37,368 bases of DNA from a virus (lineage: Duplodnaviria > Heunggongvirae > Uroviricota > Caudoviricetes), in the IMG/VR virus record IMGVR_UViG_2537561825_000012. One strand, given 5' to 3'. A program made the translations under genes and the position numbers. Below are positions 1-33,526 of the stretch, piece after piece. Each line of letters starts with the position of its first letter. Within the stretch, counting starts at the first letter, position 1. Under the pieces are notes generated by a model, which searched no databases, was not told the DNA's origin, and was given only the letters and a program-made list of their open reading frames with translations.

Positions 1-225
1 GTGGAGAATAAGCTGCACTGGCGTCTGGACGTGGTAATGAATGAAGACGACTGCAAAATAAGAAGAGGAAACGCCGCAGAATTATTTTCAGGGATACGGC
101 ACATCGCTATTAATATTTTGACGAATGATAAGGTATTCAAGGCAGGGTTAAGACGTAAGATGCGAAAAGCAGCTATGGACAGAAACTATCTGGCGTCAGT
201 CCTTGCGGAGAGCGGGCTTTCGTAG
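1..225 (+). CDS. ISAs1-family (H-repeat-associated) transposase, C-terminal fragment truncated by the window edge
   Basis: ORF ending at 225; C-terminal motif [34 protein letters not shown] recalled from ISAs1/H-repeat transposases. Host-side DNA. Confidence 0.55.
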
Positions 226-266
226 TCTTACCCCGACTCTCCCCCAGCCTTAAACACAACCCCCAC

Positions 267-746
267 TCACCGCAACCTAAACTCATCCGCATCCTGCCAT
301 GCCGGAAACTTTTCTCTATATTCCCGCAATGCCATCATCGACAGCTCCGCATCAATGCGCGTTGCCTGATGCGCGTCGGCAGTAGCGATAATCTCGCCTT
401 GTGGATTAATCACCCGGCTGTCACCGCGATAATGGCAGCCGTTGCCATCGCTGCCGACGCGATTGCATCCCGCCACATACGCCTGATTCTCAATCGCGCG
501 GGCCGTCAGCAATGCCTGCCAGTGCAGAGAGCGCGGAGCAGGCCAGTTGGCGACGTACAGGGCGAGGTCATAATCGTTGAGATTGCGCGACCACACAGGA
601 AAACGTAAGTCGTAGCACACCAGCGGCAAAATACGCCAGCCGCGCCATTCCACAATCACTCGCGCATTGCCCGCTTTATAATGTAGATGCTCATCTGCCA
701 TGCGGAACAGATGACGCTTATCATAAAAATGTACCGTGCCGCCCGG
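267..746 (-). pseudogene. yafV: yafV-like carbon-nitrogen hydrolase (omega-amidase), 3' portion only; 5' part displaced by the prophage
   Basis: Translation carries nitrilase-superfamily motifs (YDKRHLF Lys motif, LPLVCYDLRFP Cys motif) but lacks the N-terminal ~80 aa with the catalytic Glu. The ORF-track start at 794 reads through phage-end sequence. Confidence 0.6.
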
Positions 747-824
747 TGATGCGCCGCGCGATAAATGCACTCTATCTTGTGCGATAAATGGCATCCACGC
801 GGCGTTTCATTATTTGAAAAAGAA
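747..824. mobile_element. Prophage terminus (Mu right-end-like) with repeated putative transposase-binding motifs
   Basis: Starts 5'-TG at 747-748. CGCGATAAATGCAC (757-770) and GCGATAAATGGCAT (781-794) are direct repeats 24 bp apart; CGTTTCAT at 803-810. Resembles the Mu R-end sequence as remembered. Confidence 0.5.
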
Positions 825-1397
825 TTACATTTCAGGTTGCGTTATGACAGTCCCAACAGGGTGATAGCGGTAGATCGTTGACAGTCCAATATCATAGATA
901 ATTGCCAGCCGCTTTCTGTCATACCCTTTCTGGAGCAATCTTGCGATCTGCTCATGCTGCTCCTTCGTCAGTTTCGGGCGACGTCCTCCAACTCTTCCTT
1001 GTGCTCGCGCAGCAGCCAGTCCAGCCAGCGTGCGCTCAACTATCAGTTCACGCTCCATTTCTGCCAGTGCACCCATCATATGAAAAAAGAACCTTCCCAT
1101 CGGAGTGCTGGTATCGATTGAATCCGTCAGACTGCGAAAATTGACACCTTTTGCGCGTAGCTCTTCTGTGAGAGCAATGAGGTGTTTCATTCTTCTACCC
1201 AACCGATCCAGCTTCCAGACCACCAATGTATCCCCTCTTTTAAGGCACTTTAAAGCGCGTTTCAGGCCTGGTCGTTCCGACTTGGTTCCGCTCATTTTGT
1301 CCTCAAAAATCTGTTCACATCCTGCGCACATTAATGCATTGCGTTGCAAATCTGTGTTTTGGTCATTTGTTGACACACGTATGTAGCCAATCAGCAT
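825..1397 (-). CDS. gin: Serine DNA invertase, Gin/Pin/Cin/Hin family
   Basis: N-terminus MLIGYIRVSTNDQNTDLQRNAL from ATG at 1397-1395 with AAGGGAG RBS; ~190 aa. The ORF-track N-terminal extension to 1526 is rejected. Confidence 0.9.
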   Translation of the reverse strand: MLIGYIRVSTNDQNTDLQRNALMCAGCEQIFEDKMSGTKSERPGLKRALKCLKRGDTLVVWKLDRLGRRMKHLIALTEELRAKGVNFRSLTDSIDTSTPMGRFFFHMMGALAEMERELIVERTLAGLAAARAQGRVGGRRPKLTKEQHEQIARLLQKGYDRKRLAIIYDIGLSTIYRYHPVGTVITQPEM

Positions 1398-1451
1398 TAA
1401 AAATACTCCCTTTTGAGTGGTTAAAGTACTGAGATAATGTGGGGAGGATTT

Positions 1452-1477
1452 GAGAGATAAACGTTGGTTTGGGGGAA
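1452..1477. other. gix-like 26-bp recombination site C (inverted relative to sites A and B)
   Basis: GAGAGATAAACGTTGGTTTGGGGGAA; its reverse complement TTCCCCCAAACCAACGTTTATCTCTC aligns with sites A and B; sits about 55 bp upstream of the invertase start. Confidence 0.55.
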
Positions 1478-1930
1478 GGCTCTGCATTGCCTGTTGGTGT
1501 ACCGGTTCCATGGCCCACCGCCACACCGCCAGCAGGCTGGTTACAGTGCAACGGAGCTACGTTCACCAAAGAACAATATCCTGTTCTGGCCAGAGTCTAC
1601 CCGACCCTCCGTCTTCCCGATTTGCGCGGTGAGTTTATCCGTGGATGGGACGGTGGTCGCAAGGTTGATACCGGGCGTGCGCTACTTTCATTTCAGGAAG
1701 GGACTATCGTATCCGGTTTTGATGATAATGATACCGGAGATATCAGTTCGCTCGGCTCTACACAATACGGATTTGGTGACGCTTTAACCTCTAATCAACT
1801 GGGGGTCTTAAATGGCAAAAAGTGGATATTTGATGCATCCTCTAAAGGTGCACAAAGATATGACTGGTGGGCTTATGTATCAGCTCGCCCCCGCAATATC
1901 GCATTTAACTATATCGTGAGGGCGGCGTGA
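1469..1930 (+). CDS. Silent alternative tail-fibre C-terminal cassette (Sv3), inverted relative to the expressed fibre gene
   Basis: Shares the conserved LGEGSALPVGVPVPWPTATPPAGW...RGEFIRGWD.GRKVDTGR block and C-terminal RPRNIAFNYIVRAA with the other two cassettes; no promoter or constant part on this strand. Confidence 0.7.
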   Translation: MGEGSALPVGVPVPWPTATPPAGWLQCNGATFTKEQYPVLARVYPTLRLPDLRGEFIRGWDGGRKVDTGRALLSFQEGTIVSGFDDNDTGDISSLGSTQYGFGDALTSNQLGVLNGKKWIFDASSKGAQRYDWWAYVSARPRNIAFNYIVRAA

Positions 1931-1936
1931 TACCGT

Positions 1937-2551
1937 TCAGCCGGCAAGCGCCAGTGGCGCTTCCGGCCAGCTGATTTCAGGTGCCTTGCTGATATCCAGT
2001 GCGTTCAGCTCGTCGATATAATCCAGCACGGCGTTCAGTTTTGCCGTTTCTTCTGGTTTCAGACTGCGACCAGCACGCAGTTTGAGGTTGATAAGATCGA
2101 CGGACGCCATCGCCTGTTTCACCCGTTGCTGGCGTTGCTGTCTGGCAACCTCCAGTTCTGCGGCTCGCTGCCGTTCAGTATCGGTTACCCACGCCTCACC
2201 GTTCCAGGTATCCCATGGCGTGGCTGGCTGTTTTGTGGTGGTGTCCGCCGGGTAATCACCCGGTTGGGTAATCAGAACGGGGTTACCGTTCTCCGTGCTG
2301 TATACCGTCTCGCCGCGGTGATCAGGCACATGCTCCCACCCGTTCAGCGTGGCAGTCCGGCAAACCACGTAACCCGAAATTGCTTCCGGCGGTGCATCGG
2401 CGCACGAATGTGCCGGAGTACCCACCCCAAGGGCGAGATACTCCACAGAGGATGAGGTGTATTCCCGGGTTTCCTCGTCATAGTGATATACAGTGATATC
2501 GCCCGCTACAGTGGCGATACCGTTTTCATCCAGAACTGCAGTGTTACTCAT
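1937..2551 (-). CDS. Tail fibre assembly protein (Tfa; Mu U / P2 gpG-like)
   Basis: 204 aa, position immediately after a fibre cassette; start overlaps the Sv2 stop (TAATG) with a GAGGG RBS. Confidence 0.75.
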   Translation of the reverse strand: MSNTAVLDENGIATVAGDITVYHYDEETREYTSSSVEYLALGVGTPAHSCADAPPEAISGYVVCRTATLNGWEHVPDHRGETVYSTENGNPVLITQPGDYPADTTTKQPATPWDTWNGEAWVTDTERQRAAELEVARQQRQQRVKQAMASVDLINLKLRAGRSLKPEETAKLNAVLDYIDELNALDISKAPEISWPEAPLALAG

Positions 2552-3033
2552 TAAACTGCCCTCACAATGTAATTAAGTGCAATGCTACGGGGTCTGACAG
2601 TGATACCCTTCGCATACCCGCTTCTGATAGAGGTCAGAATAGTAGCCTGCATACCATTGTCTGACATTGCCACGACAGGATCGCTGAATGTTGTCCCGTC
2701 CGGCATTTTAAAGCTGCCCTCACGAAGGTCTGTAATGGAATCTTCATTGTTGAATCCCATGCCGACTATCCCCGAGGTTCCCGTAGTGTCCTGGTTATAA
2801 TAATCCAGCATTGCTGTTCTTAACAGCGTTGCCCCTTGTGCGGACAGCAACTTACGTCCTGTATCAACTTTGCGCCCGTCGTCCCATCCACGGATAAACT
2901 CACCGCGTAAATCGGGAAGACGGAGGGTCGGGTAGACTCTGGCCAGAACAGGATATTGTTCTTTTGTAAAGGCGCGCCCGTCGCACTTTAACCAGCCTGC
3001 TGGCGGTGTGGCGGTGGGCCACGGAACAGGCAC
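2551..3033 (-). CDS. Silent alternative tail-fibre C-terminal cassette (Sv2), same orientation as the expressed gene but out of frame with it
   Basis: Begins inside the conserved repeat block; frame differs from the upstream fibre ORF (whose stop lies at 3074-3076), so it is not read-through product. Confidence 0.65.
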   Translation of the reverse strand: MPVPWPTATPPAGWLKCDGRAFTKEQYPVLARVYPTLRLPDLRGEFIRGWDDGRKVDTGRKLLSAQGATLLRTAMLDYYNQDTTGTSGIVGMGFNNEDSITDLREGSFKMPDGTTFSDPVVAMSDNGMQATILTSIRSGYAKGITVRPRSIALNYIVRAV

Positions 3034-3054
3034 ACCAACGGGTAGCGCCGAGCC

Positions 3055-3080
3055 TTCTCCTAAACCAACGTTTCTATGCC
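3055..3080. other. gix-like recombination site B (direct relative to site A)
   Basis: TTCTCCTAAACCAACGTTTCTATGCC at the upstream edge of the second copy of the ~190-bp conserved block. Confidence 0.5.
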
Positions 3081-4327
3081 GCCCTTACGATGTAATTAAA
3101 CGCAATGTTACGGGGACGAATGGTCACATAATTAACCCCATCGCCTCGCGAAGGACCTGCAAATGAAAAACGGGAGAATCCAGGTTGGTTGTCAAGGATT
3201 TGGTCATAGTTATTGATTGAATGACCAGACCCAATGTCAAAATTACCTGCGTAATGAGAAAAACTTGTACCATCCTGCCGTGAAAGCAGATCGCGCCCTG
3301 TATCCACTTTTCGCCCGTCGTCCCATCCACGGATAAACTCACCGCGCAAATCGGGAAGACGGAGGGTCGGGTAGACTCTGGCCAGAACAGGATATTGTTC
3401 TTTTGTAAAGGCGCGCCCGTCGCACTTTAACCAGCCTGCTGGCGGTGTGGCAGTGGGCCACGGAACAGGTACACCAACGGGCAGCGCCGAGCCTTCCCCC
3501 AAACCAAGGTAATTGAGGACATCTTTTATACTGCCCTTAGCGATAATAGCGCGACCAATAGCTGTAAGGGTTGCCAGCTCTGCGCGGTCTGCTCCGGTAA
3601 AATAAGGCAACCGATCTGCTGCAGTGGCAAGTCCTGCCAGAGCAGTGAGCGTGGCATCTGCCGGTTGTTTTCCGTTTGCCAGATCGTATGCAGCCTTGAC
3701 CGCTTTCGGTGTGGCGGCCAGTATTTCAGACGTGCTGTTGATGGCACTGCTCAATTGTACGGTGCCTTTTGCCGTCAGCGAGGCAGCAGGCACTCCCGTT
3801 ATCTGACTCCACGGGTGAGTGTGGCTGACGGGCGCCTTGCCGGCTGCAAGGTCGTATGCAGCCTTGACCGCCTTCGGCGTGGCAGCCTCAGTTTCTGATT
3901 GACTGTCCGTGGCGCTGCTCAGTTGTACGGTGCCTTTTGCCGTCAGCGAGGCAGCAGGCACTCCCGTTATCTGACTCCACGGGTGAGTATGGCTGACGGG
4001 GGCCTTGCCGGCAGCCAGGTCATATGCAGCCTTGACGGCCTTTGGTGTGGCGGCCAGCGTTTCAGAGGTGCTGTTGGTGGCACTGCTCAGTTGGGTGAAC
4101 CCCTTAGCTGTCAGTGTCGCGTCCGGGTGGTTACGGGAACGTACGTGTTCAGCCAGTGACTGTGCGGCTTCCTCCGTTTTTTTCTTCAGCCATTTCGTCC
4201 TGTTTGCCAGTTGCCGGGGGGCTCGATTTGATATCCCGTCTGCACCACCCAGAACCGGATCTGATGTCTCCAGTTGATAGATATTTTCTTCCCACTTTTC
4301 TGTTTCATTCAGGTTTCCCATAATCAA
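3074..4327 (-). CDS. Tail fibre protein (constant part Sc fused to cassette Sv1 in the present orientation)
   Basis: 417 aa; three tandem 56-aa repeats (TAKG..QLSSA.....AATPKAVKAAYDLA.GK); C-terminus carries the conserved cassette block. Confidence 0.85.
   Translation of the reverse strand: MIMGNLNETEKWEENIYQLETSDPVLGGADGISNRAPRQLANRTKWLKKKTEEAAQSLAEHVRSRNHPDATLTAKGFTQLSSATNSTSETLAATPKAVKAAYDLAAGKAPVSHTHPWSQITGVPAASLTAKGTVQLSSATDSQSETEAATPKAVKAAYDLAAGKAPVSHTHPWSQITGVPAASLTAKGTVQLSSAINSTSEILAATPKAVKAAYDLANGKQPADATLTALAGLATAADRLPYFTGADRAELATLTAIGRAIIAKGSIKDVLNYLGLGEGSALPVGVPVPWPTATPPAGWLKCDGRAFTKEQYPVLARVYPTLRLPDLRGEFIRGWDDGRKVDTGRDLLSRQDGTSFSHYAGNFDIGSGHSINNYDQILDNQPGFSRFSFAGPSRGDGVNYVTIRPRNIAFNYIVRAA
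3494..3519. other. gix-like recombination site A at the Sc/Sv junction
   Basis: TTCCCCCAAACCAAGGTAATTGAGGA; homology between cassettes begins immediately downstream (transcript sense) of this site. Confidence 0.55.
3640..4111. repeat. Tandem 168-bp coding repeat, about 2.8 copies, inside the tail fibre gene
   Basis: GTCGTATGCAGCCTTGACCGCC-type segments recur at 3683, 3851 and 4019 (period 168 bp = 56 aa). Confidence 0.8.
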
Positions 4328-4902
4328 CTGCTCCCGTGGTTATAACTGCCATCATGGATGGCGGTATTGTTATAGCGAATGGCCACAGACTGATACTCCA
4401 GGCTGGCCAGATGGCAGCGGGCCGGTGCAAATGCAGCGAGCGTCTGACGCAGCATCGCGGCCTGATCGTTAGTAATGGGCTGTTTCAGAATAACGCGATA
4501 AACTGCCCAGGCGGCTGCATCTCCATGAACAAACAGTCCGTTATAGCTGCGATTGCCGTCGTAACTGAGACGACCTGTGCCTTCAATCAGATCCACTTCA
4601 CCAAAGCCAAAACGGCGGATAACTTCCCGGATTGACCACGGCGTCCCTTTATACCGGTGCAGTTCGATGGCTGCTTTTATAAGCATGCGGCGAACATCGT
4701 CCGATTCCGCCAGCTCCCAGCCATCGCCAGACAGTGAGAACTGCTCGCCCAGCCATGGCAGCGCGGAACTGTCGACGATATCGACGAGAAAGACCATCAG
4801 TACGCTCAGGTCGATGTTATCCAGCCGTCCTGCCAGTCTTCCCAGCGTCCTGAGACTGATATCACCCTCAAGCGGTGGCGGGAGTTGTAATGGCTCAGTC
4901 AT
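4324..4902 (-). CDS. Tail protein (P2 gpI-like / Mu gp48-like baseplate component)
   Basis: 192 aa ORF directly upstream of the fibre gene in a P2-type V-W-J-I-H-G order. Confidence 0.7.
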   Translation of the reverse strand: MTEPLQLPPPLEGDISLRTLGRLAGRLDNIDLSVLMVFLVDIVDSSALPWLGEQFSLSGDGWELAESDDVRRMLIKAAIELHRYKGTPWSIREVIRRFGFGEVDLIEGTGRLSYDGNRSYNGLFVHGDAAAWAVYRVILKQPITNDQAAMLRQTLAAFAPARCHLASLEYQSVAIRYNNTAIHDGSYNHGSS

Positions 4903-30579: not shown

Positions 30580-32349
30580 ATGACCCCGGCACTGACTGAA
30601 AAACTGGTTGAAACAGCCCGCGCGGCACGTGACGCGGGGCATGGTAAACGCGGTGCAATATACGACGCTGCCTGTGCTGAACTTGGCATGTCCCGCGCCA
30701 CTCTGCTGCGCAGGCTGAAGGAGGTATCTGTGACTGATAAACGCAAAAAACGCGCCGATGCCGGGCGCAGCGCCCTGACCCGCGACGAAGCCGCGCTGAT
30801 ATCTGCCACACTGCGTGAGGCCACCCGCAAGAACGGTAAGCGTCTCTATTCCATCGCAGATGCAGTGGAAACCCTGCGGGCTAACGGCTTTATCACCGCA
30901 GGCAGAACAGATGAAACCACCAGTGAGTTTTTCCCGTTGTCTGAAGATGCCATCAGCCGTGCTCTGCGTAACTATGGCCTGCACCCGGAACAACTGGATG
31001 CCCCTGCACCACATACCGAAGTGGCCAGTCTGCATCCCAATCATGTCTGGCAGATTGACGCCTCACTCTGCACGCTTTACTACCTGAGCAATGGACATAA
31101 AGGGCTGCAGGTGATGGACAGCGCGAAGTTCTACAAGAACAAGCCCGCTAACCTTGCCCGTATCGCCAGTGACCGCGTGTGGAGTTACGAGATTACCGAC
31201 CATGCCAGCGGCTGGATTTACGTTGAGTATGTGACGGGCGCGGAATCAGGTGAGAACCTGTGTTCTGTGCTTATCAACGCCATGCAGGAGCGTGGCGGCG
31301 CAGACGTGCTGCACGGCGTGCCGAAAATACTCTATCTCGACCCCGGCTCGGCAAACACCGCGGGTATGACGAAAAACATGTGCCGCTCACTGGGCATCGA
31401 CCTGATAGCGCACAAGCCGCATAACGCCCGCGCCACCGGACAGGTGGAAAAGGCGCGTGACATTATCGAACGCAAGCTGGAGCCGGGTCTGAAGTTCCGG
31501 CCGGTTCACAGTCTGGAAGAACTCAACGCGCTGGCCGCGAAATGGCGCAGCCACTTTAACGCCACGGCTGTTCACAGCCGCCACGGTAAAACCCGCACGG
31601 ATATCTGGCTGAAGATTACTGCTGAGCAGCTGAAAAAAGCGCCTTCCGTTGAGGTATGTCGTGAACTGGCTGTGGCGGCACCAGAACTCCGCAAAGTCAC
31701 GCCAAAACTTCGTGTCTCGTTCCGGGGCACTGAATTTGACGTATCAACGGTACCGGGCGTACTGGTTGGTGAAAAACTGATGATTACCCGTAACCCATGG
31801 CGCAGCGATGTGGCACAGGTGGTTCTGACCGGTGAGGACGGCCACGAGACGTTCTTCCTGGTCGAAGAGGTCAGAAAGAACGAGTTTGGCTTTGCTGAAG
31901 GCGCGGCGGTATTTGGCGAAAGTTACAAAGCCCTGCCGGAAACCCCGGCACAGATGGCGGCAAAAGAAACCGAAGCGCTGGTTACCGGTACAGACAACGC
32001 CGCAGATGCAGCCGCCGCACGCAAGGCGAAGGCGCTGCCGTTCGGCGGGCGGCTTGACCCGTATAAACATATCGACGACACCACACTTCCGGCCTATATG
32101 CCGAAGCGTGGTCAGGCCTCTGACGTACGCGGGCCGCGCACTGAACAACGTCCCATGACTCATGTGGAGGCCGCGAAAGCCCTGCGCGATAAGTTCAGCG
32201 CCGACGGCCTTACCTGGACGCCGGAACATTACCGCCAGTTAACGGCACAGTACCCGGACGGCGTACCGGAAGCCGCACTGGATGAAGTCATGGCCACGCT
32301 GACCACACCGGCCCGCAGCAGTGTTATCAGCATTGTTAACGGCAACTGA
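30580..32349 (+). CDS. DDE transposase (Mu A-like)
   Basis: 589 aa; integrase-type catalytic core pattern (HVWQIDAS..., YLDPGSANT...); directly followed by the AAA+ B-like gene. Confidence 0.8.
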   Translation: MTPALTEKLVETARAARDAGHGKRGAIYDAACAELGMSRATLLRRLKEVSVTDKRKKRADAGRSALTRDEAALISATLREATRKNGKRLYSIADAVETLRANGFITAGRTDETTSEFFPLSEDAISRALRNYGLHPEQLDAPAPHTEVASLHPNHVWQIDASLCTLYYLSNGHKGLQVMDSAKFYKNKPANLARIASDRVWSYEITDHASGWIYVEYVTGAESGENLCSVLINAMQERGGADVLHGVPKILYLDPGSANTAGMTKNMCRSLGIDLIAHKPHNARATGQVEKARDIIERKLEPGLKFRPVHSLEELNALAAKWRSHFNATAVHSRHGKTRTDIWLKITAEQLKKAPSVEVCRELAVAAPELRKVTPKLRVSFRGTEFDVSTVPGVLVGEKLMITRNPWRSDVAQVVLTGEDGHETFFLVEEVRKNEFGFAEGAAVFGESYKALPETPAQMAAKETEALVTGTDNAADAAAARKAKALPFGGRLDPYKHIDDTTLPAYMPKRGQASDVRGPRTEQRPMTHVEAAKALRDKFSADGLTWTPEHYRQLTAQYPDGVPEAALDEVMATLTTPARSSVISIVNGN

Positions 32350-32359
32350 GGAGGGAAAC

Positions 32360-33526
32360 ATGCTGGTACTGAAGCAGCAACTGAAAGAGGCCCGTATTCC
32401 ACAGGCGGTGGTGGCGAGAGCTGTCGATGTTTCTGAGGCCACGCTGGCCCAGATTGTGAATCATAACGCGTGGCCCCGCACCAGCCCCGGAGAAGTGCGC
32501 CGGCGTCTTGCGTCCTGGCTGGAAAGTCAGGGGATTGATACAACGAAGAGTTTTGATGCTGTACAGGGCGCGGCCACGCCCCGTACAGCGGGTACCACAG
32601 ATAAAACGAGCCTCAGTGAGGAAGAGAATATGTTACTCAAAAAACAGGTGTTATTTCCAGCAACCAAAAAAGCGTTTGGTCTTTTCCGTGACCCGTTCGC
32701 CGACGAAGCCATGCAGGGTTCTGATGATGTGTTCACCACCCCGGATATTCGCTACGTGCGTGAGGCGTTGTACCAGACAGCCCGTCATGGTGGGTTTATG
32801 GCCGTCATCGGTGAGTCCGGTGCGGGTAAATCCACGCTGCGCCGCGACCTGACTGAACGTATCACCCGCGAGAATGCGCCGGTAATTGTTATCGAGCCAT
32901 ACATCATCGCTATGGAAGACAACGATGTGAAAGGGAAAACCCTGAAGGCAGCAGCGATTGCCGAAGCCATTATCAGTACCATCGCACCACTGGAAAGCAT
33001 CAGACGCAGTCAGGACGCCCGCTTTCGCCAGTTGCATCGCGTCCTGAAAGACAGCAGCCAGGCGGGGTTCAGCCACGTTCTGGTGATTGAGGAGGCCCAC
33101 AGTCTGCCCATTCCGACACTGAAACACCTCAAACGCTTTTTTGAGCTGGAGTCCGGTTTCAAAAAACTGCTGTCCATCGTGCTGATTGGCCAGCCGGAAC
33201 TGGCGACAAAACTGTCTGAACGCAATATGGAAGTCCGTGAAGTCGTTCAGCGCTGTGAGGTGGTCGAACTTCTGCCTCTGGACAATAACCTTGAAGAGTT
33301 TCTGACGTTCAAACTGCAACGGGCCGGTAAACAACTGACGGACATTATGGACGCCAGCGCAGTGGATGCCATACGTGCCCGCCTGAGCAATCCGGGAAGT
33401 CATCGTAAAAATATGGTCAGCCTGCTGTATCCGCTGGCCGTCAGTAACCTGGTAATAGCCGCCATGAATCTGGCCGCTGAAATCGGGGTTCCACAGGTCA
33501 ACGCTGACGTTGTCAAAGGGGTTTAA
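32360..33526 (+). CDS. AAA+ ATPase transposition protein (Mu B-like)
   Basis: ATG at 32360 after GAGGAGGG; N-terminal HTH, Walker A GESGAGKST, Walker B VLVIEEAH. Confidence 0.8.
   Translation: MLVLKQQLKEARIPQAVVARAVDVSEATLAQIVNHNAWPRTSPGEVRRRLASWLESQGIDTTKSFDAVQGAATPRTAGTTDKTSLSEEENMLLKKQVLFPATKKAFGLFRDPFADEAMQGSDDVFTTPDIRYVREALYQTARHGGFMAVIGESGAGKSTLRRDLTERITRENAPVIVIEPYIIAMEDNDVKGKTLKAAAIAEAIISTIAPLESIRRSQDARFRQLHRVLKDSSQAGFSHVLVIEEAHSLPIPTLKHLKRFFELESGFKKLLSIVLIGQPELATKLSERNMEVREVVQRCEVVELLPLDNNLEEFLTFKLQRAGKQLTDIMDASAVDAIRARLSNPGSHRKNMVSLLYPLAVSNLVIAAMNLAAEIGVPQVNADVVKGV

Follow-up and report, generated by a model that had tools for sequence, protein, structure and literature searches.

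The terminal tail-fibre locus of a BcepMu-like transposable prophage is very probably an active site-specific inversion switch of the Gin/Din type with three crossover sites. The locus was analysed within a window of 37,368 nucleotides (the whole stretch of DNA, IMG/VR record IMGVR_UViG_2537561825_000012). A repeat block of ~230 bp occurs three times, twice in direct and once in inverted orientation, and each copy is headed by a 26-bp gix-like site (Table 1). The three C-terminal cassettes can each be fused in frame to the constant part of the fibre, and the locus exists as four isomers that are related by conservative crossover inside the sites. The prophage backbone is of the BcepMu-like transposable type, with an rve transposase and an AAA ATPase, and the prophage is present in ~15% of complete E. 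coli genomes (809/5,426), the pandemic ST131 lineage included. The switch type is not new, as a homologous module of enteropathogenic E. coli (EPEC) was published in 2014 (PMC4272514).

Table 1. Features of the inversion locus; coordinates refer to the window except in the last row.
Feature	Coordinates	Strand	Sequence and core	Remarks
Site A	3494-3519	+	TTCCCCCAAACC AA GGTAATTGAGGA; core AA 3506-3507	Position p3, constant-part side
Site B	3055-3080	+	TTCTCCTAAACC AA CGTTTCTATGCC; core AA 3067-3068	
Site C	1452-1477	-	TTCCCCCAAACC AA CGTTTATCTCTC (reverse complement); core AA 1464-1465	Position p1, invertase side
DNA invertase	825..1397	-		Gin/Din-family serine recombinase, 190 aa; Pfam Resolvase (8e-51) and HTH_7; PHROG 125
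Tail-fibre gene, constant N-terminal part	3507..4327	-		From the ORF list; three Phage_fiber_2 repeats
Cassette A	3074..3505	-		C-terminus expressed in the window isomer; Collar domain and 58-aa variable part
Cassette B	2551..3066	-		Silent in the window isomer; Collar domain and 86-aa variable part
Cassette C	1469..1930	+		Silent in the window isomer; Collar domain and 69-aa variable part
tfa	1937..2551	-		Sole tail-fibre assembly (chaperone) gene, 204 aa; Pfam Caudo_TAP; PHROG 105
Small invertible segment (B x C)	1465..3067	.		1,603 bp; cassette C, tfa and cassette B
Large invertible segment (A x C)	1465..3506	.		2,042 bp
EPEC E2348/69 invertible module	1891695-1893703			Coordinates in NC_011601.1

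The repeat finder returned one direct pair (2843-3071 and 3282-3510, 229 nt, 93% identical) and two inverted pairs (1461-1704 and 3267-3510, 244 nt, 86%; 1459-1689 and 2843-3073, 231 nt, 86%), bearing out the original prediction of a block present in two direct copies and one inverted copy. The three 26-bp sites are located exactly where that prediction had placed them, and the orientation of site C is opposite to that of sites A and B. Each site has the build of a Din/Gin-type site, in which two imperfect inverted 12-bp half-sites surround a 2-bp core that is identical in the partners. The motif common to the sites, TTCYCCYAAACCAASGT, has three occurrences in the window with up to two mismatches allowed, compared with 0.03 matches expected in shuffled sequence, and 0 of 100 shuffles reached three. 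Alignment of the sites, which the original prediction had called for, showed that all three share a gix/pix-type half-site, TTCYCCYAAACC, and an identical central AA; gix sites extracted from the Mu sequence and e14 pixR served for comparison. Site C aligns with Mu gixR, e14 pixR and the EPEC site, all at an equal distance from the start of the invertase. Site B, in its outer half, overlaps the stop codon that ends cassette A.

The invertase gene lies outside the invertible DNA, adjoins the inverted site C and is transcribed away from the segment. Its product has the features of the Din/Gin family, ~190 aa with an N-terminal resolvase domain containing the catalytic Ser9 (within the motif YIRVSTNDQ) and a C-terminal HTH, and is ~80% identical to Mu Gin (PDB 3UJ3 and 4M6F; E ~1e-93, residues 1-181 aligned). 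Both the domains and this identity agree with the earlier claim of a Gin-family invertase gene beside site C. The adjacent invertase is probably the enzyme that flips the segments, and inversion presumably requires Fis and an enhancer. The 5' 260 nt of the gene are 75% identical to gin, and G-N13-C 15-mers in this region align with the Fis-motif candidates of gin (at ~+101 and +147). A simple Fis-motif scan of the 5' region against gin, which discriminates poorly, gave no convincing Fis-dependent enhancer.

For the open reading frame of the constant part, ATG 4321 is a likelier start than TTG 4327; the frame holds three 168-bp tandem repeats at ~3669-4172 (direct-repeat families D2 and D3). 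The ~73 N-terminal residues common to the three cassettes correspond to the Pfam Collar domain (PF07484). The cassettes also have a common C-terminal motif, RPRNIAFNYIVRA, and differ in middles of 58-86 aa, in line with the expectation that each block is followed by a C-terminus of its own with a shared ending. All three tips join the constant part in frame, resulting in fibres of 417 aa (A), 428 aa (C) and 445 aa (B). A single tfa, located immediately downstream of cassette B, is available for the three cassettes; in two isomers out of four it runs antisense to the late operon. A scan of positions 700-4500 showed neither a sigma-70-like promoter for tfa nor a rightward promoter near site C, although with 2.9 hits expected by chance the scan is uninformative. 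Specificity of tfa for cassette B was considered and dropped, as the identity to the EPEC tfa is evenly 59% along the whole protein and nothing can be inferred from it.

In the proposed mechanism, the invertase would act on pairs of inverted 26-bp sites and cut each of them at its central AA. Two arms stay fixed, one made up of the invertase plus the outer half of site C, the other of the constant fibre part plus the outer half of site A. The pieces that move between them are segment X (439 bp), consisting of cassette A and, at its tail, the outer half of site B, and segment Y (1,603 bp), consisting of cassette B, tfa and the inverted cassette C. The two inversions are nested and have one end in common, and this geometry permits exactly four isomers, with the expressed tips A, A, C and B. 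The window arrangement (S0) would produce fibre A with tfa in the sense orientation behind it. Flipping Y would give S1, with fibre A and an antisense tfa; flipping X and Y together would give S2, with fibre C and an antisense tfa; and both inversions would give S3, with fibre B and tfa directly behind. Each inversion is predicted to give the fibre gene a different in-frame 3' end of 130-160 codons. The original prediction held that either A x C or B x C would lead to any of the three ends. All three tips are indeed reachable, and A x C joins the constant part to tip C. However, B x C alone keeps tip A expressed, swapping the silent cassette behind it and flipping tfa, and tip B is reached only when both inversions take place, whichever comes first.

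The three isomers not seen in the window were constructed in silico, with the core AA as the cutting point, and searched against 5,426 complete E. coli genomes. The built S1, S2 and S3 each match some genome at 100.0% reported identity across all 3,001 nt. The top bit score of 5542 was reached by S2 in IPCEC31 and by S3 in TUM1857, and the S1 match in EcPF7, also at 100.0% reported identity, is a few bits below (5537). The arrangements were found in 165 (S0), 174 (S1), 229 (S2) and 241 (S3) of the genomes. Thus, the four isomers and three tips all exist in natural genomes, which sustains the earlier claim of more states than the two of the Mu G segment. The locus is a three-repeat, four-variant switch, with two direct repeats and one inverted repeat, nested inversions, four isomers and three C-termini.

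ST131 genomes with the prophage at one and the same locus beside aroA show all four states: U15A and WP3-S18 are in S0, JJ1886 in S1, AR_0055 in S2 and JJ1887 in S3. With the inverted segments turned back at the cores, these five genomes show 0 differences across 2,181 bp. The hybrid sites in the ST131 isomers are exactly as predicted, with B-left/C-right and C-left/B-right sites in JJ1886 and JJ1887. The crossover can be narrowed down by single-nucleotide differences among the repeat copies: the A x C exchange falls within 19 bp and the B x C exchange within 12 bp, with the core inside both intervals. The identity of the un-flipped loci indicates that the recombination is conservative and confined to these 12-19 bp around the core. 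The natural isomers are the products of the in-silico cut and flip, as expected of a conservative reciprocal exchange at the core with inversion. A genome assembly represents one consensus per isolate, and mixtures within a culture are those reported in the papers cited below. The ST131 copy of the fibre gene, which the PGAP annotation flags as fragments, was also considered as a pseudogene; this was rejected, as the fibre ORF of JJ1886 is intact.

Short-read or hybrid assemblers can mis-orient inverted repeats of ~240 bp, and the alternative arrangements could in principle be assembly errors at a static locus. However, each of the four arrangements recurs in 165-241 complete genomes with exact junctions, the four geometrically allowed arrangements suffice for every locus inspected, and PCR confirmation exists for the homologous EPEC module (PMC4272514) and for ST131 (10.1101/2022.05.07.487787), leaving this explanation with almost no credence. 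Another source of the isomers would be RecA-dependent homologous recombination between the 230-244-bp inverted repeats rather than recombination at the 26-bp sites. At 229-244 nt these repeats are long, their identity is 86-93%, and the EPEC paper called the recombining elements simply 215-bp inverted repeats (PMC4272514). However, the longest perfect homologies in the block (85 and 56 bp), which would be favoured for RecA crossovers, lie away from the crossover interval and are unused, whereas all the junctions examined are within 12-19 bp around the core AA. The repeat blocks of the five genomes are at most 1 nt from the window copy, without any chimeric block, and both mobile segments keep their full length there, also the 439-bp one that separates the direct copies A and B. 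RecA-dependent exchange is thus highly improbable as the origin of the isomers.

The crossovers at the 26-bp sites might also be made by another enzyme. Din-family invertases (Gin, Cin, Pin and Hin) cross-complement, and most of the matching genomes have several matching places (a median of 4 each in the S0 and S1 searches), indicating that related invertase or fibre modules co-reside. A Din-family invertase from a co-resident prophage, for example a P2-like or e14-like one, could then flip the segments in trans, with the adjacent gene dispensable or inactive. However, the adjacent gene is intact, has the Ser9 motif and similarity to Gin over its full length, and is identical (WP_000904922.1) across ST131 genomes showing all four states. 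Action in trans is therefore very unlikely, and it would affect only which enzyme acts and not the identity of the element as a Gin/Din-type inversion switch.

The closest precedent, a P2-like prophage module of EPEC E2348/69 described by Goldberg et al. (2014, Genome Med 6:112), has three repeats and three C-termini, and its four variants were found to coexist by sequencing and PCR (PMC4272514). A preprint on ST131 reported reversible inversion confirmed by PCR and XmnI digestion, in a record containing the window locus, and coexistence of variants within a culture of ST131 isolates (10.1101/2022.05.07.487787). The EPEC module and the present one have the same layout, built from a fibre constant part, three Collar-block repeats of ~215-240 bp (two direct and one inverted), a single tfa and a serine invertase alongside. 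Each has two nested inversions with one common end (2,008 and 1,576 bp in EPEC; 2,042 and 1,603 bp here), four isomers, three C-termini and orthologous sites (TTCCCCCAAACC AA CGTTT.../GGTAAT...). The modules are 73-76% identical in DNA and the tfa products 59% identical, and the orthologue of cassette A, which is joined to the constant part in the EPEC reference sequence, is 85% identical in amino acids. However, the host element is a P2-like prophage in EPEC and a BcepMu-like transposable prophage here, and two of the three variable tips are unlike. The invertase has the same direction relative to the segment in both, followed by tail genes in EPEC and by the prophage end here. The search of the phage database returned no full-length match to the module. 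Its best records are the partial genome of a Bcepmuvirus, PhiKM, which is broken within the repeat block, and an ST131 prophage record with wrongly set boundaries.

Comparison with Mu showed the closely related invertase in the same position: in both, the gene follows baseplate genes 47/48 and S at the end of the late operon, lies outside the segment and is directed away from it. Both systems switch the C-terminus of the tail fibre, and both use 26-bp sites with the half-site TTCnnnnAAACC. However, Mu has two gix sites and two states, with two cassettes that each carry an assembly gene (S-U and S'-U'), whereas the present locus has three sites, four isomers, three tips and a single chaperone. 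The core is GA/TC in gix and AA here, as also in e14 pixR, and no com/mom genes follow the invertase here. The Min system of p15B, in which six mix sites produce a large number of isomers and the host element is a P1-like plasmid prophage, differs from the three sites, four isomers and Mu-like prophage here. Min of p15B and Cin of P1 (Iida, Sandmeier and Arber, 1990-92) are Din-family serine invertases that shuffle tail-fibre C-terminal cassettes through more than two sites. The Min system is cited in PMC6906374. The R64 shufflon (Komano 1999, cited in PMC4272514) likewise uses multiple inversions, exchanging the C-terminal parts of PilV, a surface adhesin. However, the R64 recombinase is the tyrosine recombinase Rci acting on sfx repeats, whereas the recombinase here is a serine resolvase/invertase.

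The two isomers that express fibre A may not be equivalent. Some tail-fibre assembly proteins remain attached to the fibre tip, where they take part in receptor binding, as in work on Mu Tfa. The B x C flip turns the sole tfa from sense, co-transcribed behind A, to antisense, and there is a slender chance that S0 and S1 differ in this respect. The virions would then have four phenotypes, fibre A or B accompanied by Tfa and fibre A or C lacking it, and the switch would control the supply of a chaperone or adhesin in addition to the identity of the tip.

The three tips probably differ in receptor specificity. Since each inversion replaces the fibre C-terminus in frame, the virions released by a lysogen population would carry any of three receptor-binding tips, which would amount to bet-hedging on host range. 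The map of the four isomers, together with the exact sites, accounts for the fragment and pseudogene labels that annotation pipelines attach to the fibre genes, as well as the "translocations" that comparative studies have reported here, and the locus can be used as a marker of invertase activity. The mechanism itself is not new; the locus provides a computationally verified example of programmed multi-state host-range variation.

Sequence comparison of the window with itself using a repeat finder recovered the triple block of the original prediction as one direct and two inverted pairs. The repeat block of segment X, the shorter of the two mobile segments, is 93% identical to block B and only 86% identical to block C. 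A 17-mer common to the three 26-bp crossover sites A, B and C occurs three times in the window, compared with 0.03 expected occurrences. The stretch running from site C into the invertase gene can be aligned column for column to the corresponding module of EPEC E2348/69 as well as to gixR-gin of Mu and pixR-pin of e14, placing site C in register with the known sites gixR and pixR. The recombinase adjoining site C contains Resolvase and HTH_7 domains with the catalytic serine motif YIRVSTNDQ, and its residues 1-181 match the Mu Gin crystal-structure sequences (E ~1e-93, ~80% identity), in agreement with its assignment to the Gin family.

Features of the invertible module and of the prophage carrying it
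Feature	Position	Strand	Details
ISAs1 transposase fragment (chromosomal) and truncated yafV	1-746		
Prophage end	747		
Recombinase gene	1397->825	minus	190 aa
Site C	1452-1477		reverse complement TTCCCCCAAACC AA CGTTTATCTCTC
ORF	1469-1930	plus	153 codons
Tail-fibre assembly gene (tfa)	2551->1937	minus	
Collar-domain fragment	3066->2551	minus	
Site B	3055-3080		TTCTCCTAAACC AA CGTTTCTATGCC
Tail-fibre gene	4327->3074	minus	417 codons
Site A	3494-3519		TTCCCCCAAACC AA GGTAATTGAGGA; start of the last third of the tail-fibre gene
Direct block copies	2843-3071 / 3282-3510		229 nt, 93% identical
Inverted block copies	1461-1704 / 3267-3510		244 nt, 86%
Inverted block copies	1459-1689 / 2843-3073		231 nt, 86%
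Segment X	3068-3506		439 bp; cassette A, tail with outer half of site B
Segment Y			1,603 bp; cassette B, tfa, inverted cassette C; cassette-side half-site at both ends
Invertase arm			carries outer half of site C
Constant-part arm			carries outer half of site A
rve-type transposase	30580-32349		
AAA ATPase	32321-33526		

Each junction joins one cassette-side half-site to one outer half-site, and the arms and segments X and Y can be chained in only four ways. Segment X runs from the inner half of site A through the Collar block, variable part A and the stop codon to the outer half of site B, which overlaps the stop codon of cassette A. The window arrangement, S0, has no inversion, and carries fibre A with tfa in the sense orientation. 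Flipping of Y (B x C) gives S1, with fibre A and an antisense tfa; flipping of X and Y together (A x C) gives S2, with fibre C and an antisense tfa; both inversions give S3, with fibre B and a sense tfa directly downstream. The reading frame is kept in all the fusions (417, 428 and 445 aa). The module has four isomers. Its three fibre ends are more than the two states of the Mu G segment, as had been proposed. The proposal that either A x C or B x C reaches any tip holds only in part: A x C joins the constant part to tip C, but B x C alone leaves the fibre sequence unchanged, and tip B takes two steps. In its make-up, segment X resembles a further cassette gained by a Mu-like ancestor that had two.

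Isomers S1, S2 and S3 were constructed in silico from the window, with cuts placed at the central AA, and the isomer queries were compared by megablast with 5,426 complete E. coli genomes, a genome being counted if one place covered at least 80% of the query. Each predicted arrangement was found: S0 (3,601-nt query) in 165 genomes with a best identity of 99.6% in several of them, and S1, S2 and S3 (3,001-nt queries) in 174, 229 and 241 genomes, with best matches of 100.0% over 3,001 nt in EcPF7 (5537 bits), IPCEC31 (5542 bits) and TUM1857 (5542 bits), respectively. Since 80% coverage of the query of another state is unreachable, the four sets are separate, together comprising ~809 genomes. ST131-type genomes carry the prophage at one common place beside serC-aroA, where U15A and WP3-S18 are in state S0, JJ1886 in S1, AR_0055 in S2 and JJ1887 in S3. 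The 2,181-bp modules of these five genomes show zero differences once un-flipped at the cores, and the hybrid sites that they carry agree exactly with prediction (for example, TTCTCCTAAACCAA+GGTAATTGAGGA at the constant part in JJ1887).

The block copies could also serve as substrates for RecA exchange, their longest perfect homologies being 85 and 56 bp. However, these homologies, 100-190 bp into the block, are unused, whereas SNPs between the copies confine the A x C exchange to 19 bp and the B x C exchange to 12 bp, with the core within both, and no chimeric block was seen in the ST131-type modules compared. The narrow crossover, the unused long homologies and the lack of chimeric blocks are characteristic of conservative site-specific recombination rather than of RecA exchange. 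The switch mechanism is well supported by the natural isomers.

The remainder of the window codes for Mu/P2-type baseplate and tail proteins, and the partial phage genome PhiKM, which has the fibre and baseplate part in common with it, is assigned to Bcepmuvirus. The prophage end starts with 5'-TG and interrupts yafV (2-oxoglutaramate amidase), a junction absent from every other complete E. coli genome; in the ST131 genomes this end borders the aroA region. These observations fit integration by transposition, and the element fits a transposable, BcepMu-like prophage. An ISAs1-family transposase fragment (1-225) lies beside the interrupted yafV. Three tandem 168-bp repeats (3669-4172, 79-86% identical) coding for Phage_fiber_2 repeats lie in the constant fibre part, whose 13 substitutions relative to JJ1886 (ST131) cluster in this repeat stretch.

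Several public records are irregular around the locus. RefSeq/PGAP lists the fibre gene and silent cassettes of ST131 loci L005-L008 as multiple pseudogenes flagged 'incomplete, partial in the middle of a contig', in a pattern that varies by isomer. A fibre pseudogene in ST131 was rejected because the ORF is intact throughout in JJ1886, and the shuffling seems to have produced the calls as an artefact of annotation. PV468777.1 ('Escherichia phage Entero_P88_NC_026014(23)') ends with chromosomal ycaO, serC and aroA, then the invertase and two of the cassettes of the present prophage, which suggests a prophage prediction with misplaced limits, host DNA being joined to the BcepMu-like prophage end. 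In PQ738613.1 (Escherichia phage PhiKM), a partial Bcepmuvirus genome, early genes are directly joined to the fibre gene and homology to the window ends at ~3375, within repeat block A. The invertible region of this record was probably broken or misjoined during assembly, and its fibre gene is overlapped by an odd 'Fe2+ ABC transporter permease' annotation.

A P2-like prophage locus of EPEC E2348/69 was described with three partially homologous inverted repeats, large and small inversions, and four PCR-validated variants with three alternative C-termini (Goldberg et al. 2014, PMC4272514; locus coordinates and the 215-bp repeat in its supplement). Gene order in the EPEC module matches that of the window module, with 73-76% DNA identity. 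Its sites are orthologous (TTCCCCCAAACC AA CGTTTTCGTTTT, ...CGTTTTCATGCT and ...GGTAATCAAGAA), cassette A has an orthologue there with 85% identity, and it likewise has a single tfa, 59% identical to that of the window. Reversible, PCR/XmnI-confirmed inversions hitting tail-fibre genes beside a phage invertase were reported in ST131 wound isolates (preprint, 10.1101/2022.05.07.487787), and the GenBank record Entero_P88 from that work (PV468777.1) contains serC, aroA and the window-type invertase and cassettes. Thus, this kind of system is already published, flipping of the present locus has been seen, and novelty is low. Added here are the exact sites, a map of the four isomers, mapped crossovers and population counts, together with the placement of the module in a transposable, BcepMu-like prophage. 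An uninformative scan of 700-4500 found no promoter-like site for tfa (2.9 expected by chance), and a simple, non-discriminating motif scan of the invertase 5' region against gin gave no convincing Fis enhancer candidate. As one tfa serves three alternative tips and, in S1 and S2 out of the four isomers, runs antisense to the late operon, there is room for S0 and S1 to differ in phenotype.
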